Positions 4,452 to 25,474 are shown, counted from the first letter of the stretch. The stretch: DNA of 64,000 nt from Bacilli bacterium (GCA_017397685.1 JAFQID010000029.1:1931-65930), one strand, 5' to 3'. Translations and numbers: made by a program. Notes: a model not told the origin generated them from the sequence alone.

Positions 4452-4537
4452 GAAAAACTCGCGTTTTCCCTTATATTATCTGGGTTTGCGAGTTATTTCC
4501 CACAACATTGTTTATATTTTTTACCACTGCCACATGG
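4452..4537 (-). repeat. secA-tail copy A1 (45-mer at 4493-4537) with its terminator
   Basis: Minus strand CCATGTGGCAGTGGTAAAAAATATAAACAATGTTGTGGGAAATAA encodes PCGSGKKYKQCCGK*. A CTCGC...GCGAG hairpin plus T-run follows. There is no start codon upstream in frame. Confidence 0.9.
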
Positions 4538-4691
4538 TTCTTTATATTGGAGCTTTTGGTGGCACTTTCCGGCTTTTGACGGCACTTTATGGCTTCCGAG
4601 AGCACTCTACAGCACTCGGGAGCACTAGCTGAGGGTATCTAAAAAGGTATTTAATTTTCAAAAATTAGCCTTTTTCGAATATTTTTTGTAT
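4538..4691 (-). repeat. T1 element body, copy a
   Basis: Homologous to 8206-8368, 17127-17290 and 20667-20832. It contains the hairpin region GGCTTCCGAG...CTCGGGAG, tandem GGTATCTAAAAA/GGTATTTAATTT (4634-4657) and the tail AAAAATTAGCCTTTTTCGAATATTTTTTGTAT. Confidence 0.85.
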
Positions 4692-4701
4692 TCTTATTTT
4701 T

Positions 4702-6237
4702 TTACCTTTTTCTTATTTCATCTTTAATAAATTTGACGAATTCGTCAATTGATATTGAATAAGTTTCTTCACTGCCATATTTACGATAACTAATTAAATT
4801 ATTATCTCTTTCGTTATTACCTAAAATTAATGTGATAGGATTTTTCATTATATTACTTTGTCTTATCTTTTTCCCCATATTTTCTTTTGAGTTATCATAT
4901 TCTACTCTTATATCTTCACTTAATAATAAATCATAAATTTTCTTACAATACTCATCATGGTATTTAACATTAACTGGAATAATATTTACTTGTACTGGAG
5001 ATAACCATATTGGTAATACTCCTTTAAATTGTTCAAGTAATAGCATTATAAACCTTTCATAAGAACCAAGTACTGCTCTATGAACCATAACTGGAACTTG
5101 CTTTTCTCCGTTTTCATCTATGTAAGATAGTCCAAATCTTTTAGGCATCGCGAAGTCTAACTGCACTGTTGGTATTTGTATTTTTCTTCCTAATTCATCT
5201 TTAAACATAAAGTCAATCTTAGGTCCATAAAGTGCAGCTTCACCTTCGCATCTTTTTGCATTTAGTCCCAATTCTTCACAAATTTCTGCAAGCATATTTT
5301 CACAGATATCCCAATCTTCTTGACTACCAATATATTTTTCAGGATGTTCATAATCTCTTACTGATAATGATACCCAGAACACATCATATAATCCCATATT
5401 AGAATAGAAATCTTTTATTAAATTACATATATTCATTACTTCTTGTTTTACTTGTTCACGAGTACAGAATGAATGACCATCTTCAACAGTAATTGCATAT
5501 ACTCTTGACAATCCTCCTACTGCTCCCTGTAATTCTGCTCTATATTGTTTATCTGATTCCATGTATCTAATTGGCAAATCTCTATAACTACGAAGTTTAG
5601 ATGCATATATTTGAGTATGATGTGGGCATTGTACTGGTTTTAAAACATATTTATGTCCTTTAGGTGATTCTACTCTAAATAGTTCATCATTAAATTTCAT
5701 AGCATGACCTGAAGTTTCAAATAATGAAATGTCTGCTAAAGATGGACAACTTACTTTTTGAAAACCATATCTTCTACACACTCTTTCTATTTCTTTTTGT
5801 AATTCATCTTTTACAATAGTTCCTCTTGGAGTATATAAAGGCAATCCTGCACCTACATAATCAGAAAAACAAAATAAATCTAAATCTTTTCCAATCTTTC
5901 TGTGATCTCTTTCCTTTAATTCTTCTAGGAACTCTAAAAATTTATCAAGTTCTTCTTTGCTTTCAAATGCTCTTCCTGAAATTCTATCTATCATTTCATT
6001 ATTAGCATCACCATTATAATAAACTCCACTTATTCTAAGTATTTTAACAAAACAATTATTATCTAATTTATTAATTTCTTTTTCTAACGATTCAAAATCA
6101 TTTTCACTTATTTTTTCATCGATTTTAAATTCATAATAAAATTCTTCTTCATTAAATACTTTATTATCTAATTTAACATTTTTATATTTATCTTTTATTA
6201 TTTGTTCTAATAATACAACTGCTTTTTCATTTATCAT
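4702..6237 (-). CDS. thrS: Threonyl-tRNA synthetase, N-terminally short form (no TGS domain and most of the editing domain missing)
   Basis: Class II catalytic and anticodon-binding domains are present (RDHRKIGKDLDLF, HRAVLGSYERF). ATG at 6237 has RBS GAAGG; an in-frame GTG at 6291 is the alternative start. A Thr T-box lies upstream. Confidence 0.9.
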   Translation of the reverse strand: MINEKAVVLLEQIIKDKYKNVKLDNKVFNEEEFYYEFKIDEKISENDFESLEKEINKLDNNCFVKILRISGVYYNGDANNEMIDRISGRAFESKEELDKFLEFLEELKERDHRKIGKDLDLFCFSDYVGAGLPLYTPRGTIVKDELQKEIERVCRRYGFQKVSCPSLADISLFETSGHAMKFNDELFRVESPKGHKYVLKPVQCPHHTQIYASKLRSYRDLPIRYMESDKQYRAELQGAVGGLSRVYAITVEDGHSFCTREQVKQEVMNICNLIKDFYSNMGLYDVFWVSLSVRDYEHPEKYIGSQEDWDICENMLAEICEELGLNAKRCEGEAALYGPKIDFMFKDELGRKIQIPTVQLDFAMPKRFGLSYIDENGEKQVPVMVHRAVLGSYERFIMLLLEQFKGVLPIWLSPVQVNIIPVNVKYHDEYCKKIYDLLLSEDIRVEYDNSKENMGKKIRQSNIMKNPITLILGNNERDNNLISYRKYGSEETYSISIDEFVKFIKDEIRKR

Positions 6238-6291
6238 TTTCTTACCTTCTTTCTTATTATTTACTTTTTGATTGGGAGTATTTCGTATCAC

Positions 6292-6530
6292 TTTCCGTTT
6301 CCGTCATTAAAATCTCCTCCTTTAAAACAAAAAGAATAATACCGTTATAGGAGTCTATAAGACGGTACCATCCTTATTTTTACTTAATTTATATAACCGA
6401 TACCCTCGGGCAATCTCTTTCGAGTGCAACATAATAGGTAGTAATTATCAAGTTTATTATTATCTTCCACCAAACGATAACTCTCTATAAAATAAATTAT
6501 TAATAATCGTATCCTATATCTTAGTTTTTC
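6292..6530 (-). promoter_or_regulatory. T-box leader with a Thr (ACU) specifier
   Basis: Stem I AGAGAGUUAUCGUUUGGUG and an ACU-ACCU specifier context are present. The T-box core GGAUGGUACCGUC is at 6361-6373, with a terminator plus U-run. An extended -10 TGATATAAT lies at about 6538-6546. Confidence 0.8.
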
Positions 6531-6572
6531 TAATATTATTATATCATATTTTTTACTTTTAATTAATTAAAT

Positions 6573-6602
6573 TAAAAAGCCTATTACATTGATTGTAATA
6601 GA
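6573..6602 (-). terminator. Intrinsic terminator after the small peptide gene
   Basis: CTATTACA (6581-6588) pairs with TGTAATAG (6594-6601). A T-run follows on the minus strand. Confidence 0.6.
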
Positions 6603-6637
6603 CTCTTAATCCAAATATTATTCGTATAATATATTTA

Positions 6638-6721
6638 TTAAAGAATGCTAAAACAACCAATATTAACTATTGATTTAGTTGTTGTCGTAGTAGTTGTAGT
6701 TGCTAATTGATTGTTTAACAT
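6638..6721 (-). CDS. 27-aa peptide MLNNQLATTTTTTTTKSIVNIGCFSIL (AgrD-like C-terminus)
   Basis: RBS GGGAGAG lies 6 nt upstream of the ATG. TTGACA (6780-6775) is upstream and a terminator is downstream. The peptide ends in GCFSIL; the agrD at 27255 has GCFHLA. Confidence 0.45.
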   Translation of the reverse strand: MLNNQLATTTTTTTTKSIVNIGCFSIL

Positions 6722-6818
6722 ATTAATCTCTCCCTTTCAAAAAGTGATTATAGAATAACACAAAATAGCATTTTTGTCAAAATTAACATTCTAAATTTAT
6801 AAAAAACTATAAAAAACG

Positions 6819-6840
6819 GGTATCTAAAAGGTATCTAAAG
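6819..6840 (-). repeat. Iteron pair, GGTATC family
   Basis: GGTATCTAAAA GGTATCTAAAG, an 11-bp period, just 3' (minus sense) of secA-tail copy A2. Confidence 0.85.
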
Positions 6841-6881
6841 TGCATTTTTAGGGGTTAAAATACAAAAAAATTGTAGCAAAG

Positions 6882-6967
6882 AAAAATCTCGAAAACCCTT
6901 ATATTTCCTGGGCTTGCGAGGTTTATTTGCCGCAACATTGTTTATATTTTTTTCCACTGACACATGG
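6882..6967 (-). repeat. secA-tail copy A2 (45-mer at 6923-6967) with its terminator
   Basis: Encodes PCVSGKKYKQCCGK* with one Gly to Val change. A CTCG..CCC/GGG..CGAG hairpin and T-run follow. Confidence 0.85.
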
Positions 6968-7070
6968 TGTAAAATCTGCAATTTTTTTACAGTTTTTACA
7001 ATTTTTTTATTTAAATTACAAATAATTTATAAATTCTACAACTTATTTTTACTCTAAAATCTTCGCAGAA

Positions 7071-7106
7071 CGTATGTAAAAACGTATGTAAAAACTTATG
7101 TAAAAA
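7071..7106 (-). repeat. Iteron triplet, GTATGT family
   Basis: CGTATGTAAAAA CGTATGTAAAAA CTTATGTAAAAA, a 12-bp period. Confidence 0.9.
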
Positions 7107-7131
7107 TGAAATTATTAAAGGTTCAAATGAG

Positions 7132-7698
7132 CTATTTTTTTATATTAAAATCTCTTTTTGCACTTTTGAAGTTTTCAGCATGAAGTTTTGTAATATTCTT
7201 TATACATTCTTTTAGTTTTATTCCTTCTGGTGTAAGTTCAACACTATCATTATCTAAATCTAAAATTTTAGTTATTTTTAATCCTTGAGCACTCATGTGA
7301 AAAAGATCACCAAAATTCGAAAAATAACTTCCTAAACTACCATTTTGTAAAAATCTTTGTAATCCATCAAGTGTTGATTTATAATCATTGATTTTTTTAT
7401 CTAAGATCATTTTGCATCTAAGATCTTGAATATTATTCTCATCTAAATCAAATAAATTGTTTTCTCTGATAAACTCTAATTCAACTAAACTTAAATCAAA
7501 CAAACTTGTACTAAAACTTAAATCATACATTTCATAAAAATTAAATTCTTTATTTGGGATTGGCTCCATATCCATTTCTCTGCTAAGCGCACATACTTCA
7601 TCCCATTCTTTTTTTAATGATTCATATGTAAGAAACATCCTATTATTTACAACATCTTGAATCTTGTTTTTATCAATCACTGTATTTCTTATAAACAT
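7132..7698 (-). CDS. Hypothetical protein, 188 aa
   Basis: Long ORF with RBS GTGAGGA. I recognise no domain. Confidence 0.6.
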   Translation of the reverse strand: MFIRNTVIDKNKIQDVVNNRMFLTYESLKKEWDEVCALSREMDMEPIPNKEFNFYEMYDLSFSTSLFDLSLVELEFIRENNLFDLDENNIQDLRCKMILDKKINDYKSTLDGLQRFLQNGSLGSYFSNFGDLFHMSAQGLKITKILDLDNDSVELTPEGIKLKECIKNITKLHAENFKSAKRDFNIKK

Positions 7699-7721
7699 AA
7701 TTAATCCTCACTTAGTATTTT

Positions 7722-7985
7722 TTATCTATGCATACTATTAGATTCTTCTATTTCTTCACCTGCTAAAGTTTTTACTAAATTTAAATAATAAGCATAGTCT
7801 TCTGGTGTTAAAGTAGCAACATCTACTACCTTGTATCCATTTGCTTGTGCATAAGCTTGAACATTTTTATACTCATTTTGATATTTTTTTACTCTTTCAT
7901 CATTTGCTGCAAGAGTCTTTTGTTCAACAAATATTATTTTCTGATCATCATCTTGACCCCAATAAGAATAACAACTCATTTCCAT
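7722..7985 (-). CDS. Hypothetical protein, about 87 aa
   Basis: The track ORF starts at 8030, but a TATGATATAAT promoter lies inside that extension. RBS TTGGAG precedes the ATG at 7985 (MEMSCYSYWGQ...). Confidence 0.55.
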   Translation of the reverse strand: MEMSCYSYWGQDDDQKIIFVEQKTLAANDERVKKYQNEYKNVQAYAQANGYKVVDVATLTPEDYAYYLNLVKTLAGEEIEESNSMHR

Positions 7986-8066
7986 TATAATCACTCCAAT
8001 CATTTTTATTATATCATAAATATTCCTCATTTTTTCACTATTTACCTAAAATTACCCAAGAAAAAA

Positions 8067-8088
8067 CGTATGTAAAACGTATGTAGAA
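8067..8088 (-). repeat. Iteron pair, GTATGT family
   Basis: CGTATGTAAAA CGTATGTAGAA. The surrounding roughly 95 bp (8067-8160) is homologous to 19401-19500. Confidence 0.9.
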
Positions 8089-8116
8089 GCACTTTTTAAG
8101 TAAAAAATACAACTTT

Positions 8117-8205
8117 AAAAAAAAAACTCACGAGCCCTTATTTTATGGGGCTTTGCGAGGTTATTTACCACAGCATTGTTTATACTTGCGACCACTGCCA
8201 CATGG
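8117..8205 (-). repeat. secA-tail copy A3 (45-mer at 8161-8205) with its terminator
   Basis: Encodes PCGSGRKYKQCCGK*. The hairpin CTCACGAGCCC/GGGGCTTTGCGAG is followed by a 10-nt T-run on the minus strand. Confidence 0.9.
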
Positions 8206-8368
8206 TAAAAAGATTCCTAGTTTTTGATTGCACTTTCGGGCTTTTGAAGGCGTTTGGCAGCCCTTTTTTGCCCTTTTTGGCTTCCAAGAGCACTTGGGAA
8301 TCCTACCGGAAGGTATCTAAAAGGTATCTAAAATTCAAAAATTAGACTTTTTCAAATATTTTTTGTAT
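8206..8368 (-). repeat. T1 element body, copy b
   Basis: Hairpin GGCTTCCAAG-AGCA-CTTGGGAATCC lies at 8279-8303 and tandem GGTATCTAAAA x2 at 8312-8333. Homology with 9770-9836 continues up to the stop of the gene at 8457. Confidence 0.85.
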
Positions 8369-8456
8369 AAGTATTTTTGCATTCTATTTAATCACCGCAA
8401 TGTCTTAATACTCTGATTTAAACAATAAATTGTAATTTATAATAAGATATAACTAT

Positions 8457-9209
8457 TTAATCTATAGTTATTTTAATATCCCCTGTATCGGTGATAATTT
8501 CACATTTTTCATCTGTTATTACTTTTGGAACATCAATATTACCTGTATCGCTTTCAGCAAAAATTACTTTATCAGTAAGTAAGTTCCCTGTAACATTTCC
8601 TGTATCAGTTTTAACGAAAATATCACTAGCATCACTATCTTTAAATTTAACATCTCCTGTATCTGTTTCAATTTTAAATTTTTCTGACGCTATTACATTT
8701 TCCAATAAAATATTTCCAGTATCTGATTCAGAAAATAAATTTTTACATTTAGTATTAACAATTTTTAAATTTCCTGTTAAAGTAGATAAATCAAGCTTAT
8801 TAGCATTTATACTTTTAATACGAATATTCCCTGTATCAGATTCCATAATAAATTCGTCATATTCATTTTTAGATAAATATATGGTTATTTTTGATGTACT
8901 AATACCTATATGTTCATACCATTTTCTATTATCATTAACTTCAACTAATAAAGTGTTCTCTTTTACATTAACTGAGTGTTTTATATTTTTATGTTCTTCA
9001 CAAATAATCAAAGTATTTAAATTTTCAGAAAGTACAAAATCAATATCAGCAGTATCAGTTATAATTTTTATATTTTCAAAAGTTTCTTTAATTTCATATT
9101 CATTGGTTTCTAATTTAACTGTTATTGATAAACTATATAAAACGACACTTGCAACTAATAACAAACAAAATGTTATAGCAATCCAGATAATTGTTTTCTT
9201 CATAATCAA
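8457..9209 (-). CDS. DUF4097/LiaG-like putative adhesin-fold protein with an N-terminal TM helix
   Basis: Repeated (S/T)DTG(N/D)(I/V) beta-strand motifs (SDTGNI, TDTGDV, TDTGNV). RBS GGAGG. The plus-strand ORF 8491-9246 is its shadow. Confidence 0.7.
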   Translation of the reverse strand: MIMKKTIIWIAITFCLLLVASVVLYSLSITVKLETNEYEIKETFENIKIITDTADIDFVLSENLNTLIICEEHKNIKHSVNVKENTLLVEVNDNRKWYEHIGISTSKITIYLSKNEYDEFIMESDTGNIRIKSINANKLDLSTLTGNLKIVNTKCKNLFSESDTGNILLENVIASEKFKIETDTGDVKFKDSDASDIFVKTDTGNVTGNLLTDKVIFAESDTGNIDVPKVITDEKCEIITDTGDIKITID

Positions 9210-9229
9210 TCCTCCATTTCAACAAATTA

Positions 9230-9385
9230 CTATTTATTTAAATTAATAATTGAATAAACCATTAATGCTACTCCAAGACCAAATACTACACATCCATATA
9301 CTTCTGACAAATGGTTTGCAAAAAAACCTATGGTTCCACTTCCTAAAGCACATAATATTGCATATAATAATTTTTTCTTTTTCAT
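9230..9385 (-). CDS. Small membrane protein, 51 aa
   Basis: MKKKKLLYAILCALGSGTIGFFANHLSEVYGCVVFGLGVALMVYSIINLNK. RBS AAGGAG is 9 nt upstream, and an extended -10 TGGTATAAT lies further upstream. It is not in the ORF track because it is under 60 aa. Confidence 0.55.
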   Translation of the reverse strand: MKKKKLLYAILCALGSGTIGFFANHLSEVYGCVVFGLGVALMVYSIINLNK

Positions 9386-9523
9386 ATATCTCAACTCCTT
9401 AACAACTTACTATTTGTCTCTCAGTTCTATTATACCATATTTCAAGGTATATTTTTTATTGTCTTATTAAACACAATATTACTAAATTTCGAACACAGAA
9501 CTAAAACGATTTTTAAACTCGAT

Positions 9524-9697
9524 TGCCAATGTCATTTTGGCAGTCGACAAAATTTAGCCTTTTTTTTATTAACCAAATCTTTGCAATCCTTTATAAATAA
9601 AGGAATTATGGCAATTTTTAGCAATACAAAATTTTTGTATTTTTGCTTCAAAAAAGGGTATCTAGATACCTTTTAAATACTCACCGGAAGGTATTTT
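9524..9697 (-). repeat. T2 element, copy a
   Basis: Contains TGCCAA..TTGGCA, CCTTTATAAATAAAGG, ATACAAAATTTTTGTAT and the perfect palindrome GGTATCTAGATACC (9657-9670). Homologous to 10624-10836, 21489-21660 and 22752-22935. Confidence 0.85.
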
Positions 9698-9788
9698 GGC
9701 TTCCGAGAGCACTCGGGAAACCTAGCAGAAGGTATCTAAAAAAGTATCTAAAATTTAAAAATTAGCATTTTTTGAATATTTTTTGTAT
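9698..9788 (-). repeat. T1 element, partial copy c without a secA tail
   Basis: Carries GGCTTCCGAGAGCACTCGGGAAACC, then GGTATCTAAAAAAGTATCTAAAA, then the tail AAAAATTAGCATTTTTTGAATATTTTTTGTAT. Confidence 0.85.
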
Positions 9789-9836
9789 ACAAATTTTTTA
9801 TACCTATTTAGTAATCATAATATCTTAATATAACGA

Positions 9837-10430
9837 TCATTTATCTTCTACTGGTTTAGCTTCACTTCTTTCACAAGTTCCACCACTATTTTTTACATAG
9901 GCATCAATAACATCTAATACTTGATATGCATCTCCATACTTTTCTAAACCAGTTATATTTGCTAAATATCCATCTCCACCTGCTTCTTTAATTTCTCCTG
10001 TTGTTTCATAGTAGTTAAATTCATACCCATATGTTTTATCATGTAAAGTACAATTAATTGAAACATTCATTAATCTTCCAGAATTATTTTCATGAATATT
10101 TTTAAAAATAATTCGTAGCGCAATTAGAAGAATTGGTGCAACTATTATAAAGATAACCATAAATTTAATTAGTTTTAAAATTAAACCAGCTAGTTTTTCT
10201 GTATTAGATGTTTTTTCAACTAGAATATTTTTAATATCATTATCAGTTAATTCATCTAAACTTACATTAAATATTTTAGATAATTCTTTTGATTGTTTTA
10301 AATCTGGTGATGTTTCTCCTAATTCCCACTTTGAAATAGTTTGTCTTGCTACACCTACTTTTTCAGCAAGTTCTTCTTGAGAAAGACCATTTTTCTTTCT
10401 TAAGTCCATAATCTTTTTTCCAATTTCCAT
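9837..10430 (-). CDS. XRE-family HTH regulator with a TM helix and a C-terminal domain
   Basis: The HTH reads LRKKNGLSQEELAEKVGVARQTISKWELGETSPD. ATG at 10430 follows RBS GAAGGGA; the track start is 10454. Confidence 0.8.
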   Translation of the reverse strand: MEIGKKIMDLRKKNGLSQEELAEKVGVARQTISKWELGETSPDLKQSKELSKIFNVSLDELTDNDIKNILVEKTSNTEKLAGLILKLIKFMVIFIIVAPILLIALRIIFKNIHENNSGRLMNVSINCTLHDKTYGYEFNYYETTGEIKEAGGDGYLANITGLEKYGDAYQVLDVIDAYVKNSGGTCERSEAKPVEDK

Positions 10431-10623
10431 AATCATCCCTTCTTTCAAATACAATCATATGATATTTAAAATCTATTCTCTACCAATTTTAACTGGAATA
10501 CTCGCCCGTTTTTATAACATTTAAGCTACATATCTATTTTACCATAGAAATTGCAGATTTTTCACATTTGCTATTTAATCGTAAGATTACTATATTACGA
10601 TTAAAGTATTAATACTTATTTTT

Positions 10624-10836
10624 TTAACTCAATCACCAATACCGTTTTGGCACTGAACACAATTTTATCTCTTTTTTTAAAACAAATCTCTGCAAAGCCT
10701 TATAAATAAAGGAAACACCGTATTTCTTCACCATACAAAATTTTTGTATTTTTACCCCATTTTTGGGTATTTAGATACCTTTTAGATACTCAGTGGAAGG
10801 TATCCAGAAAGGTATCAAAAGTATTTTGCAAAGTTT
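10624..10836 (-). repeat. T2 element, copy b
   Basis: Same module order as the other T2 copies, with the near-palindrome GGTATTTAGATACC at 10766-10779. It lies directly 3' (minus sense) of secA-tail copy A4, just as T2-d follows the real secA. Confidence 0.85.
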
Positions 10837-10845
10837 TTGAAAATT

Positions 10846-10919
10846 AAAAAACCCCTAATTTTATGGGGTTTTAGCTATTTACCACAACATTGTTTATATT
10901 TTTTACCACTGCCACATGT
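10846..10919 (-). repeat. secA-tail copy A4 (45-mer at 10875-10919) with its terminator
   Basis: Encodes TCGSGKKYKQCCGK with a TAG stop. The hairpin is CCCC-TAATTTTA-TGGGG plus a T-run. Confidence 0.85.
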
Positions 10920-10933
10920 TAATAACAATCTAG

Positions 10934-11028
10934 TATATATAGTATTATGCGATATATATAGTATTATACGTTTTCCTAGGTATTACAAGATCTGGGATGA
11001 TTTGGTATATATAGTACATATAGTATTA
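10934..11028 (-). repeat. Direct repeats TATATATAGTATTAT, three copies
   Basis: Copies lie at 10934-10948, 10953-10967 and (with a 9-nt insertion) 11005-11028. Confidence 0.8.
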
Positions 11029-11053
11029 TAAGTACTATGTGTTCACGAGCGTT

Positions 11054-11075
11054 TGCACACAAATTGCACACATTA
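11054..11075 (-). repeat. Iteron pair, TGCACACA family
   Basis: TGCACACAAAT TGCACACATTA. It matches the cluster at 14860-14905. Confidence 0.8.
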
Positions 11076-11142
11076 TATCATCAGCATTCGTCTCTAAATA
11101 CATTATATCATGTTTTTATATATATTCATATTATTATCATCA

Positions 11143-11757
11143 TTATGATAAAGATAATCTTTTTATACTTTGTTTTAAATAAGTATTTTTGTACCATTCA
11201 GCAAATAATTCAGTTGCAGATGTATGTCCATCATTTCTATTCTTTCTTTCTTCATCAGACATTTCAGCTAAAGTTTTATCACAATTATCTGGTACAAATA
11301 CATACCATAAGTTAGATTTTGCTCTTTTTATTGAATCTCCTCTTTTACTGTATGCTAATGTTCCACTACTTACTCCATAAAAAGTATAAAAATCATTACC
11401 ATCATAAAAAGTTAAACAATCAATAAATTTGCAGGTTCTATTAGTCTCATCCTTCATTGTTTCAAGTAATCCTTCTATATCTGAACTTATTCCACTTCTC
11501 TTAACAAATGCTCCAGGATATCCAGGATTATTTGGATAATTATCTATATAAAATCCTGTATCAGCTACAAAACAAGGTGTTTGTAAAATGTTATATGCAT
11601 CCAATGCTTTTTTTCTTGATATTTTTTCAATATCATTTATTTCAATTTCTTCAAAGTCATATTCATAAAAGTCTATACCTATATTTTTTTCTTCAAAATA
11701 TTCTTTAACTGAAACATATTTACCATAATTTCCAGTTACATAAATTATATTTTTCAT
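11143..11757 (-). CDS. Ham1/RdgB-like non-canonical NTP pyrophosphatase, divergent
   Basis: VTGNYGKYVSVKEYF, ADTGFYIDNYPNNPGYPGAFVKR and a KNRNDGHTSA tail resemble the ITPase motifs (TGNxxK, DDSGL..PG.YSAR, KN.ISHR). Confidence 0.55.
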   Translation of the reverse strand: MKNIIYVTGNYGKYVSVKEYFEEKNIGIDFYEYDFEEIEINDIEKISRKKALDAYNILQTPCFVADTGFYIDNYPNNPGYPGAFVKRSGISSDIEGLLETMKDETNRTCKFIDCLTFYDGNDFYTFYGVSSGTLAYSKRGDSIKRAKSNLWYVFVPDNCDKTLAEMSDEERKNRNDGHTSATELFAEWYKNTYLKQSIKRLSLS

Positions 11758-11758
11758 T

Positions 11759-12679: not shown

Positions 12680-12843
12680 TTTTCTAATATCATTAGCTTT
12701 ATTTAATAATGGATCATTTATACTTAATATTCTTTTTTCTAATTTTGAAAAATTTATTTCTGATGGTTCTGTATGTGTATGTTTAATTATTATAAAACCT
12801 CCTTCTTAATTAAATCTTAACAAAGAAAGAGGTAATATATATG

Positions 12844-17003: not shown

Positions 17004-17037
17004 GTACTTTTTACCATTTTTATGTAACATCAAAAAT

Positions 17038-17290: not shown

Positions 17291-17296
17291 TACTGT

Positions 17297-17821: not shown

Positions 17822-17851
17822 ATATTTTTCCTCCTTTTAAAGATATAATAC

Positions 17852-18442: not shown

Positions 18443-18605
18443 AAAGTCATCTCCTAATAAATATTATATCATAATTTTTTTGCTTATATTTAATGAAAAA
18501 TAAATCATTTAATATCTGTGTTCTATGTCTATACAATTTTTTTGCCGAAATTACAAAGAATTTATATTTTATACAACTAAAATTTGAACAATAAATTTCA
18601 CAAAA

Positions 18606-18629
18606 CGTATGTTAAAACGTATATAAAAA
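18606..18629 (-). repeat. Iteron pair, GTATGT family
   Basis: CGTATGTTAAAA CGTATATAAAAA. Confidence 0.75.
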
Positions 18630-18663
18630 GCATTAATTATAGTTAGATAAATTGTAATTTGTA

Positions 18664-18882
18664 TTACTTATTCAAATAATATTTGTTGTCTTTTGTCTTT
18701 ACTAAAATCTTTTGTTTTTGTAATTTATCATTTATTCTTACAAATCTATCAGGTTTTCCAACACCAACTTCTTCTAATGTTTTTGCAGTTTCTTCACTAA
18801 TAGCACCACATAAATATAATTTTTTGATTATTAAATTTCTTCTTAATAAATATATATTTAACATAATTTTCAATTTTTCCAT
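18664..18882 (-). CDS. Hypothetical protein, 72 aa
   Basis: ORF directly downstream of the XRE gene. The motif ATAAATTGTAATTT follows its stop. Confidence 0.45.
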   Translation of the reverse strand: MEKLKIMLNIYLLRRNLIIKKLYLCGAISEETAKTLEEVGVGKPDRFVRINDKLQKQKILVKTKDNKYYLNK

Positions 18883-18890
18883 TTATCCAA

Positions 18891-19247
18891 TTAAAACACA
18901 AGTTGAATAATAATGAAAATCAACATTCCAATAATTCCACTCAATACTGCAAATTTAAGTCTTAATCTCTTACCATATTTTTCTATTAAATACAAACGAA
19001 GATGTTGTTCTGAAAAAAATTTAAAATCCTGTTCAAGCATTTTTTCTCCATAATAAAATTCGTTAATTGAAATTCCTAAAGTATTACACAAAGAATCCAA
19101 AATAGTATAATCAGGCAAAGATTTTCCATTTTCCCATCTACTAATAGATTTTGATGACACCTCTAAAATTTCGCTTAGTTGTTCTTGTGTGATATTTTTT
19201 TGTTTTCTGCATTCTAAAATAAATTTACCTATTTTTTCTTGGTTCAT
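18891..19247 (-). CDS. XRE-family HTH protein with a C-terminal TM helix
   Basis: MNQEKIGKFILECRKQKNITQEQLSEILEVSSKSISRWENGKSLPD. The N-terminus is paralogous to the gene at 43819-44685. Confidence 0.8.
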   Translation of the reverse strand: MNQEKIGKFILECRKQKNITQEQLSEILEVSSKSISRWENGKSLPDYTILDSLCNTLGISINEFYYGEKMLEQDFKFFSEQHLRLYLIEKYGKRLRLKFAVLSGIIGMLIFIIIQLVF

Positions 19248-19400
19248 TATTATCCCTCTTTTCTAAAACAATTGTATATTATATGCTTTAAATTTAACAG
19301 GACATAAACTGAGAGTTTATCAAATTACTATTTTTCTATTTAATTATATCATTTTTTTATAATTAATTTGTCAGAATTATGCTCAAAATCACTAAAAAAA

Positions 19401-19422
19401 CGTATGTAAAACGTATGTAGAA
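19401..19422 (-). repeat. Iteron pair, GTATGT family
   Basis: CGTATGTAAAA CGTATGTAGAA, identical to 8067-8088. Confidence 0.9.
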
Positions 19423-19457
19423 GCACTTTTTGAGGGAAAAGTACAACTTTTCAAAAA

Positions 19458-19545
19458 AATAAAAACCCCGGAAACCATTATATTTCTTGGGTTTGTGAGG
19501 CTATTTACCACAGCACTGTTTATACTTGCGACCGCTGCCACATGG
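19458..19545 (-). repeat. secA-tail copy A7 (45-mer at 19501-19545) with its terminator
   Basis: CCATGTGGCAGCGGTCGCAAGTATAAACAGTGCTGTGGTAAATAG encodes PCGSGRKYKQCCGK*. Confidence 0.9.
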
Positions 19546-19602
19546 CAACCTATTAAAACAACCAGGTAATTTTTTGTTTGAAAATTGGGCTTTCTTACTC
19601 AT
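19501..19602 (-). CDS. 33-aa SEC-C-motif micro-ORF, the only secA-tail copy with an in-frame ATG
   Basis: MSKKAQFSNKKLPGCFNRLPCGSGRKYKQCCGK. There is no obvious Shine-Dalgarno sequence, so expression is uncertain. Confidence 0.3.
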   Translation of the reverse strand: MSKKAQFSNKKLPGCFNRLPCGSGRKYKQCCGK

Positions 19603-19672
19603 AAGTTTTAATAACTTACACTTAAAAAATTGCAATAAAGTGATGTCTAATTTTCTAACAATGCGGTTTAAA

Positions 19673-19696
19673 CTTATCTAATAACTTATCTTAAAA
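19673..19696 (-). repeat. Iteron pair, TTATCT family
   Basis: CTTATCTAATAA CTTATCTTAAAA. Confidence 0.85.
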
Positions 19697-19735
19697 AATT
19701 GATTTGTTAATAATATAATATAGAAACTATAATTG

Positions 19736-20416
19736 CTAGAATTTTTTGACTAATTTTCTTTCAAATGATGTAACAGGGTATCCGTCTACTTTTGCACCTA
19801 AAAGTATTGTTATTTCTTTACCATTTTTATGTTTAACAAAGTTTTCAATATCTTCATCTACTAAATATATTAATTCAAATGGTAAACCATTTTGTCTAGA
19901 AATAATCTCTCTTGTTTTATCACTCAAACTATAACCATCTACATTTTCTCTTTTTTTACCAAGTACTATTAATGTATCAATTTCAGCATCATCAAAATAT
20001 GTTCCACTTTGAAATTTTTCTATTTCCTCTTCTTTATTAATGAAAGCCCATTGTAAAGTTAATAGTCCTTCATCGTCATCTTTAGTAGTATAAAAAACTG
20101 TTGGTTCGCCATATTCTTCACTTAATATTGAATAGAAATCACTTAAGGCAGCCATTTTTTCACCAAGTGAACTACCACAATGATTAGACCCCACACCTAT
20201 TCTTAAAAACTCATTTTCAGAAAATTTAAAATAAAATGGCAAACAGCATCCATTAAACATATATTCCCCATTATTTCTTCTGTATGAGGATAAATATTTA
20301 CCACTTGGAATTTCTATATACGTAGAACCATAAAAATCAATTTTATCTCCTAATTTCTTCTTTAGCTTACTTGCTAACAAATTGCAATCTTCCGCTTTTG
20401 AATATAACTCACTCAT
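19736..20416 (-). CDS. Hypothetical protein, 226 aa
   Basis: Long ORF with RBS AGGAGG and an upstream TGATATAAT promoter. I recognise no domain. Confidence 0.6.
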   Translation of the reverse strand: MSELYSKAEDCNLLASKLKKKLGDKIDFYGSTYIEIPSGKYLSSYRRNNGEYMFNGCCLPFYFKFSENEFLRIGVGSNHCGSSLGEKMAALSDFYSILSEEYGEPTVFYTTKDDDEGLLTLQWAFINKEEEIEKFQSGTYFDDAEIDTLIVLGKKRENVDGYSLSDKTREIISRQNGLPFELIYLVDEDIENFVKHKNGKEITILLGAKVDGYPVTSFERKLVKKF

Positions 20417-20520
20417 TTATAAAACCTCCTGATCTGAATATATTATATCATATTTTTTAATTGTTCAGGTATTCAATTTGTTTTACCATCATTATTATAG
20501 AGTCAAAATCAATAAAAAAA

Positions 20521-20542
20521 CTTATCTAAAACTTATCTAAAC
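20521..20542 (-). repeat. Iteron pair, TTATCT family
   Basis: CTTATCTAAAA CTTATCTAAAC. Confidence 0.9.
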
Positions 20543-20581
20543 GACTTTTTTGAGGTATAATTACCTAAAAATTGTAATCAT

Positions 20582-20666
20582 CAAAAAGCCCGCAATCCCT
20601 TTATTTATGCGGGCTTACAGGCTTATTTTCCACAACATTGCTTATATTTCTTTCCACTGCCACATG
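20582..20666 (-). repeat. secA-tail copy A8 (45-mer at 20622-20666) with its terminator
   Basis: CCATGTGGCAGTGGAAAGAAATATAAGCAATGTTGTGGAAAATAA encodes PCGSGKKYKQCCGK*. The hairpin is GCCCGCA/TGCGGGC. An in-frame TAA lies 2 codons upstream of the 45-mer. Confidence 0.9.
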
Positions 20667-20832
20667 GATTTTAGTTTTCGGGTTTTTAACAGCATTTTCG
20701 GGCTTTTGGGGGGCTTCTAGGATCCCTTTTTTGCCCTTTTTGGCTTCCGGCAACACTCGGGAAGCCTAGCAGAGAGTATCTAAAAAGGTATCTAAAATTT
20801 AAAAATTAGCCTTTTTCGAATATTTTTTGTAT
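20667..20832 (-). repeat. T1 element body, copy e
   Basis: The hairpin GGCTTCCGGCAACACTCGGGAAGCC lies at 20742-20766 and AGTATCTAAAAA GGTATCTAAAAT at 20775-20798, followed by the standard tail. Confidence 0.85.
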
Positions 20833-20862
20833 TTCAATTTTTTACATAATAAATTATTTATT

Positions 20863-21381
20863 TTATCTTCTTAATGATTTAACATATTCTTGATGTCTAA
20901 CTTCTTCTGGCTTTTCCAACCACCAATTGTTGTAGTCATTATTAATACCTTTTTCAAACAATTCTCTATTAGAATTTAGAAATGCCATCCAATCCTTATT
21001 AAATTCAATACACCACCAAAAATCAGTTCTTAATTTTTTAAAACCTGTATCCTTTGTTGATGAGGTTGGTATTTTTTCTAACTCTGAATATTCTTTTAAA
21101 TGATATGGGGTATTTATAAATGAAGCTAATCCCTCTAATATTTCATTTGATAATTCTTGATTTGAAAATAATATTAACTCATTATTTTCCTTTGTATATA
21201 TTCCCGTAGAAGTATATACATAACTATCAAAGTCATGCATAATTCTTCTGAAAGATCTTGGAATAGCACCAAATTCAAATTCAGCTGAACCCATATAATC
21301 TAAATCTACTACTCCATCTCTTCCAGTTAAACCGTTTCCATCTTTATTAAACTTTCCTCTTTGTATTAAATAGAACTTCAT
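20863..21381 (-). CDS. Hypothetical protein, 172 aa
   Basis: Long ORF with no recognised domain. Confidence 0.6.
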   Translation of the reverse strand: MKFYLIQRGKFNKDGNGLTGRDGVVDLDYMGSAEFEFGAIPRSFRRIMHDFDSYVYTSTGIYTKENNELILFSNQELSNEILEGLASFINTPYHLKEYSELEKIPTSSTKDTGFKKLRTDFWWCIEFNKDWMAFLNSNRELFEKGINNDYNNWWLEKPEEVRHQEYVKSLRR

Positions 21382-21488
21382 TAATTATCATCCCTTTGTG
21401 ATTATTTATTATAGCATAATTACTCATAAAAACAATAATTTAACCTAATAATTATCGTACTTCTTTATATTTATTATTTTATCATTCT

Positions 21489-21660
21489 AAACTCGTTTAC
21501 CATTGTCATTTTGGCAATGGACACAATTTCTTCTTTTTTCTTAATTAAATTTTTGCAAATCCTTATAAATAAAGGAAATATCGTGATTTATATCAATACA
21601 AAAATTTTGTATTTTAAGCCCATTTTGGGGTATCTAGATACCTTTTAGATACTCAGCGGA
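21489..21660 (-). repeat. T2 element, copy c
   Basis: The palindrome GGTATCTAGATACC lies at 21629-21642 and TAGATACT at 21646-21653. Confidence 0.85.
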
Positions 21661-21719
21661 AGGTATGTAAAAAGGTATCTAATTTTCAAAAATAAGCCTT
21701 TTTCGAACATTTTTTGTAT
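21661..21719 (-). repeat. T1 tail fragment, copy f
   Basis: GGTATGTAAAAA GGTATCTAATTT is followed by AAAAATAAGCCTTTTTCGAACATTTTTTGTAT. Confidence 0.8.
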
Positions 21720-21752
21720 TGCTTTTTTAACACATTTTTTATTAATTAAAAA

Positions 21753-22667
21753 TTATATTTTTAACTTCTTACAATTATTTTTAGAAGAATACTTTATCCT
21801 TTGATATAAATCACTTTTTAATTCTTCTGGTAACATAGGCATATTTGCCAATTCTGTCATAAAATTAGTCTTTGAGTAATTATCTAAAGGTTGATTTTCA
21901 AATTCCATACTCCAATCAAAAGCAAAATAATTATCTTCTTTTTCAAATTCATTTCCAGGATAATCTAATATAATTGCACTATATTGTCCACCAAAACTGC
22001 TTTCTCCGATTATTGTCGAACATGAAAATCTATTAAGATCTTCTTCTTTTGTTTCATAATCAATTGGAAGTAATTTATAACCACTTTCCCAATTAACACC
22101 AGTTAATATGTATCTATCTAGATTATAATATTTTTCTAATGCCTCTAATACAGCAGCATTATTCAAATTATTATTTTTTACATAAGTTAGTATCTTCCAC
22201 ACAGTAAATGTTGGAATCTTTTTTAACCACTGATTTTTTTGTCTTCTTTCTTCTAATCTTTCTATGGATTCTTGAAAGACTTCAAGAAATATTGGATTAC
22301 TTTTTAATGATTCAATATGTTTATATAAAACAGTATTTTCCATATTTTCATCTGTAAATAAAAATTCTTCATACGCATCAACTATATCATTACATACCTT
22401 TGCAAAAAGATAAGGTTTTTCTTGATGCATATTTTTTTTGCAATCACTTGATAATTGCGTTAATAATGACAACATTTCATCATCATTTGTAATTTTTAAT
22501 TTTTGCTTTTTTATTTTTTTAATTAACTCTTTATTTGATTTCAATTGTTTTTTATAATATTCTTTTTCAATCCCATCACCAATACACAAAGCTAATATTA
22601 AATCTCTATTTTCATAAATATATAAATATCTTTTTATTAATTCATCTTGAACTAAGTTAATTTCCAT
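21753..22667 (-). CDS. Hypothetical protein, 304 aa
   Basis: Long ORF with no recognised domain. It is the first gene after secA. Confidence 0.6.
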   Translation of the reverse strand: MEINLVQDELIKRYLYIYENRDLILALCIGDGIEKEYYKKQLKSNKELIKKIKKQKLKITNDDEMLSLLTQLSSDCKKNMHQEKPYLFAKVCNDIVDAYEEFLFTDENMENTVLYKHIESLKSNPIFLEVFQESIERLEERRQKNQWLKKIPTFTVWKILTYVKNNNLNNAAVLEALEKYYNLDRYILTGVNWESGYKLLPIDYETKEEDLNRFSCSTIIGESSFGGQYSAIILDYPGNEFEKEDNYFAFDWSMEFENQPLDNYSKTNFMTELANMPMLPEELKSDLYQRIKYSSKNNCKKLKI

Positions 22668-22751
22668 AAAACACTCCTATCAATTATTATATCACAAAAT
22701 TAGCAATTTTTATAAATAAAATACTAGAGTTTAAATATTAATGTTTTATGT

Positions 22752-22935
22752 CTATTTGGCAGTGGACACAATTTAATCTTTTTTTATTAGATAAATCTTC
22801 GCAATTCCTTATAATTAAAGGAAATATCGTTATTTTAAGCAATACAATTTTTTTGTATTTTTGCTTCAAAAAAAGGTATCTAGATACCTTTTAAATACTC
22901 ATCGGAAGGTATCTAAAAAAGTATTTAAATTATTT
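22752..22935 (-). repeat. T2 element, copy d, directly downstream of the real secA
   Basis: The palindrome GGTATCTAGATACC lies at 22875-22888, followed by GGTATCTAAAAAAGTATTTAAA. Confidence 0.85.
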
Positions 22936-22950
22936 TTATAATTTTAGGCA

Positions 22951-22979
22951 TCAAAAAAGCCCTTGTTTTACGGGCTTTA
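22951..22979 (-). terminator. secA intrinsic terminator
   Basis: AAAGCCC (22956-22962) pairs with GGGCTTT (22972-22978). A T-run follows on the minus strand. Confidence 0.75.
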
Positions 22980-22981
22980 TT

Positions 22982-25474
22982 TTACTTACCACAACATTGT
23001 TTGTACTTTTTGCCACTGCCACATGGACACGGATCATTTCTTCCAATCTTATTACCTACTGTCTTAGGTTTCTTTTGAACTTTTTCCTTCCCATCATTAG
23101 TTCTAATATTCTTAACTTCATGACGCTCTATATTTTGTCTAACCTCAGCTTTCAATAAAAATTGTGATATTTCCGCATTTGTAGAAGCAATCATTCTATC
23201 AAACAAATCAAATCCTTCTAAAGCATATACCTGAAGAGGATTAGATTGAGCATAACCACGAAGCCCCACACCTTCTTTTAAATTTTCCATCGCATCTAGC
23301 TGATTCATCCAATTTTTATCCAAAATTCTAAGAGTAATAGACTTTTCAAAATCATCTTGTAGTTCATCAGGAAAATCCTTCATTTTCTCATCATAATCTT
23401 TAATAACAACATCATATATCTTACTTATAAGTTCTTCATTATTTAAATCTTCTAAATCATTTTTTACTAATTTTTCTTTCTTAAGTAAATTAGCATTAAA
23501 AACCTCAACTATATTATCTAAATCATTACTAGTAATAACTCCCTCTGGGGCAATATGACTGTTTACTTCATAAGAAACAAAATCTTTAAAAGTATTAAGT
23601 ATTCTATCTCTTATACTCTCATTATCAAGTATTTCATTTCTTCTATCATAAATAATCTCTCTTTGTTTACTAATTACATTATCAAAATCTAATAAACCTT
23701 TTCTTCTGTCAAAATTGAATCCTTCAACTTTCTTCTGAGCAGTCTCAAGATTTTTAGAAATCATTTTATTTGAAATAGCTTGGTCTTCTGCCACTCCCAA
23801 AGAAATCATAACACTTTTCATTCTTTCAGAACCAAACTTAATCATCAAATCATCTTCCATAGATACAAAGAATCTAGAGGTACCAGGATCTCCTTGTCTT
23901 CCAGCACGTCCTCTTAACTGATTATCAATTCTTCTAGAATCATGTCTTTCAGTACCAAGAACATAAAGCCCACCTAGTTCTCTAACACCTTCACCAAGTT
24001 TAATATCCGTACCACGTCCTGCCATATTAGTCGCAATAGTAACAGCATTTAACTTTCCAGCATTTTCTATTATACTTGCTTCACGTTCATGGTTCTTAGC
24101 ATTTAATAGTTCATGCTTAACTCCAGCTTTAGTTAATAATTGATCTACAACCTCACTCATTTCAACAGAAGCAACACCAATTAAAACTGGTCTACCACTT
24201 TTATGTATCTCTTTAACAGTTCTAACAAGAGCTGTAAGCTTACCGTTCATTGATGAATAAATTAAATCAACAAGATCTTCTCTTATAACAGGTTTATTTG
24301 TAGGGATACATACTACATTAGTATTATAAATATCAACAAACTCTTCTTCCTCAGTTTTAGCCGTACCAGTCATACCAGAAAGTTTATTATACATTCTAAA
24401 TAAATTTTGAAAAGTTATTGTCGCTAAAGTCTTAGTCTCTTCATTAATTTCAACACCTTCTTTAGCTTCTAAAGCTTGATGTAATCCTTCACTAAACTGT
24501 CTTCCATGCATTAATCTACCAGTAAATGTATCAACAATAACAACTTTTCCATTATCAACAACATAATCAACATCTCTCTTAAATGCATAATTAGCAATCA
24601 AAGCTTTATCAATATTATGTACTAAAGAACTATTTTCAATATCATACAAATTAGTTAAATTCAAAACTTTTTCTAGTTTTTGAACACCTTCTTCAGTAAG
24701 AGTTACTTTCTTTGTTTTTTCATCTATTACATAATCATCTATTTTAAGATTTTTAACAGTTCTATCAGCATCTTTATAAATATTAGATGACTTTTGAGCA
24801 CCACCAGATATAATCAAAGGAGTTCTAGCTTCATCTATTAAAATAGAATCAACTTCATCAATTATCGCAAAATTTAGTCCCCTTTGAACTCTCCTTTCAC
24901 TTCTAACAACCATATTATCACGTAAATAATCAAAACCAAGCTCATTATTAGTTGTATAAGTAATGTCCGCATTATAAGCCTCTTTCTTTTCAAGAGGGGA
25001 TTTATCTCTAATATTTATGCCTACACTTATACCAAGAAATTCATAAATAGGTCCCATCCATTCAGCATTTCTCGTAGATAAATATTCATTAGTAGTTATA
25101 ACATGAACCCCAAGTCCACTCAGAGCATTTAGATATGCCGGTAAAACAGTAGTTAAAGTCTTACCTTCACCAGTTTTCATTTCAGCAATATTACCACGAT
25201 GAATCGCAACACCACCAATAAGTTGAACTCTGAAAGGTTTTTCTTTTAAAACTCTAAAACAAGCTTCTCTCGCAACCGCAAAAGCTTCTACTAAAATATC
25301 ATCAAGACTCTCCCCTTTTTCAAGTCTACTTTTAAACTCATCAGTTTTAGCTTTTAATTCAACATCTGTTAAAGACTGCATCTTATCATCTAATAACTCT
25401 ATTTCATCAACAATTTTGTTAATCCTTTTTAATTCTTTTGTTTCATAATCAAATATGCTTTTAAATAATTTCAT
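22982..25474 (-). CDS. secA: Preprotein translocase ATPase SecA
   Basis: DEAD-like motor motifs (MKTGEGKT, DEVDSILIDEARTPLIISG, TNMAGRGTDI) and the C-terminal zinc motif CPCGSGKKYKQCCGK. ATG at 25474 follows RBS GAGGTGG; the track start is 25486. Confidence 0.97.
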   Translation of the reverse strand: MKLFKSIFDYETKELKRINKIVDEIELLDDKMQSLTDVELKAKTDEFKSRLEKGESLDDILVEAFAVAREACFRVLKEKPFRVQLIGGVAIHRGNIAEMKTGEGKTLTTVLPAYLNALSGLGVHVITTNEYLSTRNAEWMGPIYEFLGISVGINIRDKSPLEKKEAYNADITYTTNNELGFDYLRDNMVVRSERRVQRGLNFAIIDEVDSILIDEARTPLIISGGAQKSSNIYKDADRTVKNLKIDDYVIDEKTKKVTLTEEGVQKLEKVLNLTNLYDIENSSLVHNIDKALIANYAFKRDVDYVVDNGKVVIVDTFTGRLMHGRQFSEGLHQALEAKEGVEINEETKTLATITFQNLFRMYNKLSGMTGTAKTEEEEFVDIYNTNVVCIPTNKPVIREDLVDLIYSSMNGKLTALVRTVKEIHKSGRPVLIGVASVEMSEVVDQLLTKAGVKHELLNAKNHEREASIIENAGKLNAVTIATNMAGRGTDIKLGEGVRELGGLYVLGTERHDSRRIDNQLRGRAGRQGDPGTSRFFVSMEDDLMIKFGSERMKSVMISLGVAEDQAISNKMISKNLETAQKKVEGFNFDRRKGLLDFDNVISKQREIIYDRRNEILDNESIRDRILNTFKDFVSYEVNSHIAPEGVITSNDLDNIVEVFNANLLKKEKLVKNDLEDLNNEELISKIYDVVIKDYDEKMKDFPDELQDDFEKSITLRILDKNWMNQLDAMENLKEGVGLRGYAQSNPLQVYALEGFDLFDRMIASTNAEISQFLLKAEVRQNIERHEVKNIRTNDGKEKVQKKPKTVGNKIGRNDPCPCGSGKKYKQCCGK

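Follow-up and report, generated by a model that had tools for sequence, protein, structure and literature searches.

The DNA described here is a 64,000-nt stretch from a Bacilli bacterium (GCA_017397685.1, JAFQID010000029.1:1931-65930; to be referred to as the window), with a GC content of 26%. The secA gene is located on its minus strand (22982-25486) and encodes a protein of 834 residues, with the C-terminus ...NDPCPCGSGKKYKQCCGK directly before the stop codon. The gene tables of contigs identical to this sequence list the SecA domains and SEC-C for secA. The last 45 nt of the gene (22982-23026) are found again eight times behind it, and the blocks between consecutive copies (blocks A to H) carry accessory genes. 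It is very likely that this 3′ end of secA is an attachment site (attB), and that the islets behind it are integrase-less elements, flanked by att sites and accreted in tandem, that resemble cis-mobilizable elements (CIMEs).

Nine co-oriented 45-nt units, including that of secA, span positions 4493-23026 on the minus strand. They start at 22982 (secA itself), 20623, 19501, 17082, 14990, 10875, 8161, 6923 and 4493. The original prediction, made by a model from this sequence, had reported the same number and orientation, and its positions hold except for one start, which is 20623 instead of 20622. A degenerate 38-nt pattern of the tail has nine matches, all on the minus strand (4500, 6930, 8168, 10882, 14997, 17089, 19508, 20630 and 22989), with none in the rest of the 64-kb window and none in 100 shuffles, and an nhmmer profile of the tail recovers the identical nine copies. 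The array is not mis-assembled, because contigs from two other samples (L084 and L103) are 100% identical to it over 20 kb.

The similarity of the copies to secA stops sharply at CCATGTGG, as had been predicted, and the copy at 10875 begins with ACATGTGG. The first Cys of the CPC zinc motif is missing from the copies. Start codons are missing as well (the earlier claim had excepted one copy), and upstream the reading frame stays open for no more than 26-58 codons. With the first Cys absent and the open stretch this short, the copies are truncated gene ends rather than SEC-C genes. Compared with their consensus, the tails have 37 differences, of which 29 are synonymous and 8 non-synonymous (4, 4 and 29 by codon position), which indicates that each tail evolved as coding sequence. 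The differences among 28 tails pooled from several genomes are distributed as 27, 19 and 141 over the three codon positions. A stem-loop followed by a U run is present after all nine tails in single-sequence folds, consistent with the claim that every copy has its own terminator, but the one after the copy at 14990 is weak (z = -0.7). Single folds were used here instead of RNAalifold, which gave no consensus on a poor MAFFT alignment of the post-tail hairpins.

Each block carries one to four genes in the same orientation as secA, as had been noted before. Extended -10 boxes are readable ahead of the first genes of the blocks, in keeping with the TGnTATAAT-type promoters claimed for them; a generic promoter and terminator scan does not discriminate in DNA of 26% GC, and its loop limit misses the hairpins. 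The original prediction also held that the sequences upstream of the copies were unrelated. They are indeed unrelated to secA, but they are related among themselves, as conserved arm modules. The type-matched repeats in these arms had been overlooked, and they are the key to the nature of the units.

Every block is framed by direct repeats of the same type at its start and its end, and the type differs between neighboring blocks. At the block start (in secA orientation), a pair of 7-8-nt direct repeats is located 40-90 nt past the hairpin, sometimes together with inverted copies. At the block end, a repeat pair of the same type is found about 100 nt ahead of the next tail. The AGATACC type is present in blocks A, F and H and at the end of block C, the AGATAAG type in blocks B and D, the ACATACG type in block G and at the start of block C, and the TGTGTGCA type in block E. 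The AGATACC end module is conserved over about 175 nt (ATACAAAAAATATTCGAAAAAGGC...TTAGATACCTTTTTAGATACC, followed by a spacer of 96-107 nt). The spacer has A-tracts every ~10 nt, with an autocorrelation peak of 0.27 at lag 10, and this phasing suggests that it is probably intrinsically curved and bends the DNA. The repeats are putative arm-type sites of an integrase, and the arms together with the tail have the organization predicted for a λ-type attP of ~330 bp, divided at the core. Rfam has no match for the arm and spacer modules, and the matches in the window are limited to T-box leaders, an RT-5 motif and an OLE RNA.

At three junctions (~21629-21760, 18527-18629 and 9657-9800) an end module is followed by a start module with no tail between them. 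These junctions look like deletions between neighboring arms, and counting them, the eight tail-bounded blocks probably correspond to eleven units. A multi-hairpin module of ~190-250 nt is found at the starts of A1, A2, F1 and F2 (22755-22945, 21509-21699, 10646-10836 and 9537-9727), and also in three related contigs (L096, L006 and L027). An AGATACC pair in two further contigs (L097 and L099) was set aside, as neither a tail nor a related integrase is present there, and it is probably due to chance or has another use.

The array is described here from secA downwards, with all features on the minus strand. Block A (20668-22981) consists of two fused AGATACC islets, with the P′ arm at 22875-22914, the tail-less junction at ~21629-21760, and the P arm and spacer at 20668-20843. 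Its two genes, A1 (21753-22667) and A2 (20863-21381), have no match in Pfam, PHROG, NCBIfam or PADLOC. The second tail (20623-20667, hairpin 20586-20624) is followed by block B (19546-20622), an AGATAAG islet with the P′ repeats at 20521-20538, a gene at 19736-20416 and the P repeats at 19673-19691; in type, its P′ arm agrees with the one beside the integrase of prophage L100 (see below). The third tail (19501-19545, hairpin 19463-19494) precedes block C (17127-19500), where an ACATACG islet, C1, is fused to C2. C1 has P′ repeats (19401-19418), a gene for a helix-turn-helix (HTH) protein (18891-19247), an open reading frame (ORF; 18664-18882) and the remnant of a P arm (18527-18629), while C2 has two genes (17852-18442 and 17297-17821) and an AGATACC P arm with its spacer (17127-17301). 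After the fourth tail (17082-17126, hairpin 17040-17078), the AGATAAG islet of block D (15035-17081) carries P′ repeats (~16957-17005), an M3 oligoendopeptidase gene (15154-16851) and P repeats (15141-15159). This cargo has 67% nucleotide identity to a gene behind secA in another contig (L008).

The fifth tail (14990-15034, weak hairpin 14965-14985) is followed by block E (10920-14989), a class-1 element of the TGTGTGCA type (see below) that has no integrase. The block contains P′ repeats (14860-14901), genes for an AbiZ-like protein (13410-14705) and a WYL-domain protein (12844-13326), an unknown ORF (11759-12679), a Ham1 gene (11143-11757), and a P arm with ATAATACTATATAT repeats (10920-11072). 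The sixth tail (10875-10919, hairpin 10848-10872) is the one that begins with ACATGTGG. Block F (8206-10874) again consists of two fused AGATACC islets, F1 with an HTH gene (9837-10454) and F2 with a DUF4097 gene (8457-9209); its P′ arm is located at 10773-10815, the tail-less junction at ~9657-9800, and the P arm and spacer at 8206-8379. The seventh tail (8161-8205, hairpin 8127-8159) precedes block G (6968-8160), an ACATACG islet with P′ repeats (8067-8084), two ORFs (7722-8030 and 7132-7698) and P repeats (7071-7101). The eighth tail (6923-6967, hairpin 6888-6920) has a G-to-V change. Block H (4538-6922), an AGATACC islet, has its P′ arm at 6819-6922, a T-box leader at 6346-6531, thrS at 4702-6237, and the P arm with the phased A-tract spacer at 4538-4700. 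The last tail (4493-4537) is followed by a hairpin (4456-4494) and by a degenerate AGAACCA repeat (4413-4419). The terminator and flank of this tail are 82-85% identical to the sequence directly after secA in four other contigs (L085, L092, L046 and L016).

Contigs of the same species were found by means of an identical Hpf protein. Up to 13 kb of their flank aligns with the window at 98-99.2% identity. The homology then ends 13-26 nt inside the 45-mer, at position 23013 or 23000. The genes beyond the break are unrelated to those in the window. One version carries genes for HTH, MazE, ABC transporter, DUF5131 and β-lactamase proteins, and the other a nitroreductase-like gene. SecA of these strains ends in RKYKMCCGK or KKYKMCCGK, while that of the window ends in KKYKQCCGK. 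The C-termini are therefore swapped between near-identical strains, as predicted by the accretion model, in which each integration brings a replacement tail. The original prediction had put forward this model and an alignment with related genomes as its check, and both the breakpoints inside the 45-mer and the change in block content behind it bear the model out.

One genome per species was scanned with the SecA C-terminus as the query. The closest relatives are metagenome-assembled genomes (MAGs) of uncultured gut 'Bacilli/Tenericutes/Mycoplasmatota', with a SecA C-terminus that is at most 75% identical. Two to four co-oriented truncated tails are present behind secA in 12 of the ~48 loci of related species, and in none of the more distant loci from Lachnospiraceae and other Clostridia. 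Several metagenome contigs have further arrays, also with two to four tails. Every tail detected sits behind secA, in contrast to what a scattered repeat would give, and neither the tail number nor the block content is invariant across the relatives. Among the inter-tail blocks of other species, 17 of 20 have no integrase and show the same minimal form, with no debris of phage genes.

Many MAG and metagenome contigs stop at, just past or within the secA tail (L001, L003, L011, L024, L035, L087 and L101), as would be expected if the assembly runs into a repeat there. It is probable that the secA-tail arrays break up assemblies and that MAGs contain too few of them.

Arms and cargo recur, at 79-91% nucleotide identity, in genomes with no more than ~50% identity in the SecA C-terminal region. 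The arms of block E are 81-88% identical to those of element 1 in contig L026, where the cargo is different and the SecA C-terminal region is 49% identical to that of the window. The WYL gene and the 306-aa ORF of block E are 79% identical to their counterparts in yet another contig (L017).

No tyrosine recombinase is found in any frame of the window, either with hidden Markov models of the two integrase families described below or with tblastn, and the 30 ORFs that were screened with Pfam, from 1 to 37.6 kb, include no recombinase. A motif screen of the window for tyrosine and serine recombinases is also negative, with a control that matched just one of the two integrase families. The absence of an integrase, which the original prediction had noted for 23 kb and considered a misfit to its model, is thus borne out for the 64 kb. 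The misfit is resolved, as complete prophages and small elements elsewhere encode a phage-type tyrosine integrase at the same site.

The first of these is a complete prophage inserted at secA in a 40.1-kb IMG/VR contig (3300028833_003330; L119 and L098), with an integrase of class 2. The prophage starts with the secA tail, the hairpin box, an AGATACC P′ arm (GCACTTTAGATACCTTTTAGATACC) and a convergent integrase gene. The remainder has genes for tail, holin and endolysin proteins, morons for a helicase and a methyltransferase, and an AGATACC end module with the A-tract spacer, and it ends at a truncated tail. Over 107 nt, the P′ arm of islet H has ~90% identity to the attL arms of three prophages (L119, L120 and L126), and its entire P module aligns to the right end of the L119-type prophage. 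The blocks of the window are bounded by 45-nt cores and have arms that align with prophage attL and attR.

The other arm types have integrase partners as well. A prophage with AGATAAG arms (L096 and L100) encodes an integrase, an S24 (CI-like) repressor, Erf, an exonuclease, a replisome organizer, NinB and an HNH protein, and is located behind an integrase-less AGATACC islet. Its integrase in L100 has 1361 homologs with E ≤ 1e-30, some of them with PF14657 (Arm-DNA-bind_4). The integrase P0006 (L111) is paired with an ACATACG arm (GTGCTTCTACATACGTTTTACATACG) that is nearly identical to the starts of islets C1 and G, and the integrases P0012, L115, L117 and L118 are paired with AGATACG arms. 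In integrase relatives at 42-46% identity, the repeats and the hairpin box are maintained while the insertion site is different, which makes the hairpin box a part of the phage arm. Among GenBank phages, none has DNA that matches the P-arm module, and the integrase is at most 29% identical to those of cultured phages.

A second family, made up of small elements with an integrase, has the TGTGTGCA-like arms. The class-1 integrase has ~400 residues, with Arm-DNA-bind_4, SAM_3 and Phage_integrase domains (L042). It is located directly behind secA in five contigs (L009, L012, L020, L023 and L042), and within tail-bounded units in two others (twice in L019, and in a disrupted form in L026). The arm repeats of this class are TGTTTGCA, TGTGCACA, TGTGGACA, TGAGGACA or TTGTCTAC, with the same layout as in block E. 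The two integrase families are 24% identical to each other, and the start of the identity to secA is offset by 3 nt between them. In two contigs (L111 and L120) a class-1 element is followed by a phage in tandem. L019 also has a unit of ~0.3 kb (14539-14810) that consists only of a P′ arm fused to a P arm, with a frameshifted tail behind it. This unit is what remains, with no cargo, of the neighboring TGTGGACA-type element.

With these data, the presence of functional small SEC-C genes can be rejected, as the first Cys and the start codons are absent. More generally, the conserved peptide sequence of the tails could be explained by small SEC-C-motif genes, or by duplications of the secA end through homologous recombination or replication slippage, with no mobile elements involved. 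This is extremely improbable, since besides the defects of the copies themselves, their flanks are phage attP arms, the content of the strains differs exactly from the core onward, and integrases are present at the site in relatives.

The original prediction had also pointed to the integron-cassette size of the units. Their small size, their common orientation and the conserved hairpin after each tail would fit an integron-like platform, where a dedicated, unseen recombinase inserts promoterless cassettes behind secA via folded, attC-like hairpins. We consider such a platform very unlikely, and the likeness does not extend to membership. There is no intI-like gene beside the array or elsewhere in the window, and attI, Pc and attC are likewise absent. 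The islets have their own extended -10 promoters and, in block H, a T-box leader. The repeated site is the end of a protein-coding gene with typed arm repeats identical to phage attP arms, and relatives have phage-type integrases with arm-binding domains at this site.

Three other assignments were rejected. Phage satellites, such as phage-inducible chromosomal islands (PICI), Staphylococcus aureus pathogenicity islands (SaPI) or P4-like elements, do not fit units that have no integrase and whose unknown cargo has no PHROG match, with hits only to generic HTH regulators. For an integrative mobile element exploiting XerCD/dif (IMEX), the site is the coding end of secA and not dif, and the related elements encode their own phage-type integrases. 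Finally, the window units are not autonomous λ-type elements, as they have no integrase, in contrast to L042, L100, L119, P0006 and P0012.

These observations suggest a model for the assembly of the array. The last 45 nt of secA would be the core of a chromosomal attB, used by at least two heterobivalent (λ-type) tyrosine integrase families, and the hosts of these integrases appear to form a clade of uncultured, low-GC gut Bacillota. The proposed attP would begin with the P arm, which has the 7-8-nt direct-repeat pair and then the A-tract spacer of ~100 nt. Next would be the core, a synonymous copy of the SecA C-terminus that begins with CCATGTGG in class 2 and with TGTGG in class 1 and ends at the stop codon, followed by the terminator-like hairpin box and a P′ arm whose repeats match those of the P arm in type. 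Integration would exchange the secA tail for the tail copy of the element, leaving the displaced tail behind the P arm of the element, and repeated integrations at any of the tails would stack the elements. Integration is not confined to the secA-proximal tail, because phages sit behind islets in L100, L111 and L120. Each unit of the window would then be a split attP around self-promoted cargo only, either a deletion derivative of a secA-targeting phage or small integrative element, or a hitch-hiker on one. Excision or movement of such a unit would take place only with a cognate integrase acting in trans, or as a composite with a neighboring prophage.

Several observations weigh against this model of CIME-like accretion. 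An islet with a 383/384-aa gene is collinear with secA in L100 and L199, and the islet and secA show the same ~75% identity between these two lineages, which points to a long vertical residence rather than recent movement. Three junctions in the window have no core, which together with the arms-only unit of L019 indicates decay. The array is 100% identical across three samples. The integrase search covers only 64 kb of a scaffold of ~85 kb. The P′ module of ~250 nt in A1, A2, F1 and F2 is found beside no phage integrase in IMG/VR. Lastly, the thrS cargo equals an ordinary chromosomal thrS, with 82-85% nucleotide identity in L193-L195, yet in the window it lies between phage arms; tails and arms are not found at these chromosomal copies.

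Several of these points would fit a reading in which the array arose through site-specific integration and the islets have since become inert scars, with the integrase and phage genes deleted, useful cargo kept, and nothing to move them. The cores deleted at three junctions, the L019 remnant, the disrupted integrase of L026, the islet that diverged in step with secA in two lineages, the identity of the array in three samples and the lack of an integrase in the window are all in the direction of decay and fixation. On the other hand, most units have kept both arms, the length of the spacer and the repeat pairs, at 82-90% identity to those of functional-looking prophages. The minimal blocks in other species have no phage debris either, and the unknown cargo of the window has no PHROG match. 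Moreover, the same arms are found with different cargo in distant hosts, and the arrays are wholly different between strains with 98-99% identical flanks. Inert scars are therefore a possibility that we hold to be somewhat doubtful.

The intact, prophage-like arms, the absence of phage debris, the reassortment of arms and cargo, and the complete turnover between near-identical strains point instead to use of the islets in trans or in cis. From this pattern, the CIME-like islets may still be mobile, through an integrase supplied in trans or alongside a phage. At its furthest, the islets could be a working cassette system, with each cassette made of a full phage attP and one self-expressed gene and borrowing the integrases of temperate phages, a proposal that we make tentatively. 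Orthogonal arm specificities (AGATACC, AGATAAG, ACATACG and TGTGTGCA) would coexist in one array, and single cassettes would be cut out, shuffled anew or taken along by any phage that is present. Such a system would be a phage-driven functional analogue of the integron, located behind an essential gene. Logan unitigs of islet B (1025-1035 bp) were considered as candidate circles and rejected, as they end at the P′ repeats and inside the next tail and their ends do not overlap.

The cargo of the array includes thrS with its T-box, the AbiZ-like and WYL pair, Ham1, the M3 peptidase, a flavodoxin-like protein and HTH regulators. Several cargo proteins have no family match, and PHROG gives none for the unknown genes and only generic HTH regulators as hits. 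Islet H contains a complete thrS transcription unit (4702-6790, minus strand), with a promoter, the T-box leader (E = 6.5e-10) and a threonyl-tRNA synthetase of 511 residues that has no usual N-terminal domain (519 bits on TIGR00418). This unit is 88-91% identical to an internally deleted copy inside an islet of L026. The AbiZ-like protein of block E is recognized by PADLOC (E = 7e-34) and as DUF6161 by Pfam, and the WYL-domain regulator adjoins it. This part of block E (12844-14705) is anti-phage cargo in an element that uses an integration site common to phages.

Beyond the last tail, serS (2723-4312, minus strand) has its own T-box leader (4127-4312, E = 1.5e-14). The AGAACCA repeat at 4413-4419 resembles the AGATCCA and GGAGCCA start arms of L085, L092 and L016, and from this likeness the array may continue leftward as a further, larger unit. 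An RT-5 RNA motif (1472-1577) is located directly upstream of a reverse transcriptase ORF (247-1446, minus strand), which has matches to group-II-intron-type and Drt3a-like models, all below the cut-offs. A gene for an MntA-like nucleotidyltransferase (1949-2713) adjoins this ORF, and the group may be a defense-type reverse transcriptase module just past the array. On the other side of the array, an agr-type histidine kinase gene (27392-28756, minus strand) cannot be aligned between the window and L085, while its flanks are ~98.8% identical. This divergence looks like allelic variation in agr specificity. The OLE RNA is located at 57092-57575 on the plus strand (223.6 bits in Rfam).

Within a little-known clade of uncultured gut Bacillota, the coding end of the secA C-terminus thus appears to be in wide use as an attachment site, which would explain why many MAG contigs of this clade break exactly at the end of secA. 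A fast-changing accessory locus can consist almost wholly of integrase-less units framed by phage att sites. The interleaved arm types and the diverged N-terminal domains of the integrases would provide natural orthogonal integrase/attP pairs with one common core, useful for studies of arm-site specificity and possibly for genome engineering. If phage integrases mobilize the islets, they would be a route of cassette exchange distinct from integrons. In full-text searches of the literature, no publication was found that describes secA as an attachment site.

The closest known elements are the CIMEs related to ICESt1 and ICESt3 at fda of Streptococcus thermophilus, which have kept attL and attR, have lost the integration genes and are arranged in tandem at the 3′ end of a housekeeping gene, and for which cis-mobilization of composites is the proposed route (PMC5704250). 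Like CIMEs, the secA islets are flanked by att sites with arms related to those of autonomous elements, have no integration or transfer genes, carry non-phage cargo, and are in tandem at one att site (eight blocks in the window, and an islet followed by a prophage in L100). Unlike CIMEs, their autonomous partners are temperate phages and integrase elements of 1-4 kb rather than conjugative elements. The secA target, the 8-11 units per array and the four interleaved, orthogonal arm types are further differences, and most of the secA units are 1-2 kb in size with a single self-promoted gene.

The arm-type direct repeats that flank a core common to attP and attB are found in λ, Tn916 and many Firmicute phages as well, and the replacement gene end carried by the element and the N-terminal arm-binding domain of the integrase (in the relatives) are also as in λ-type systems. 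In comparison to these, the phased A-tract spacer appears to replace the host-factor bending sites at the secA elements, and two integrase families that are 24% identical use one core with a 3-nt offset.

The staphylococcal cassette chromosome (SCC) and pseudo-SCC elements at the 3′ end of rlmH (orfX) are, like the secA islets, recombinase-less tandem cassettes bounded by gene-end repeats. In contrast to the islets, SCC elements depend on large serine recombinases (Ccr) and on short, arm-less direct repeats, and have no relation to phage attP. Integron arrays share with the secA array the small co-oriented cassettes, the fixed chromosomal point and a recombinase outside the cassettes, but the secA array has no intI, attI, Pc or attC, its units come with promoters of their own, and a split phage attP is the site of recombination.

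Finally, in the tycheposons of Prochlorococcus, successive integrations at the same site also push older elements inward, partial copies of the target gene are scattered in the island, and the cargo reflects niche and defense (bioRxiv 10.1101/2020.12.28.424599). Tycheposons differ from the secA islets in their tRNA and tmRNA targets, in having an integrase and a replication module, and in leaving remnants without clear boundaries, while the boundaries of the secA islets are intact (bioRxiv 10.1101/2020.12.28.424599). The class of mechanism is therefore known from these systems, and the new features are the secA target, the phage origin of the arms, the large and purely integrase-less array, and the interleaved arm specificities.

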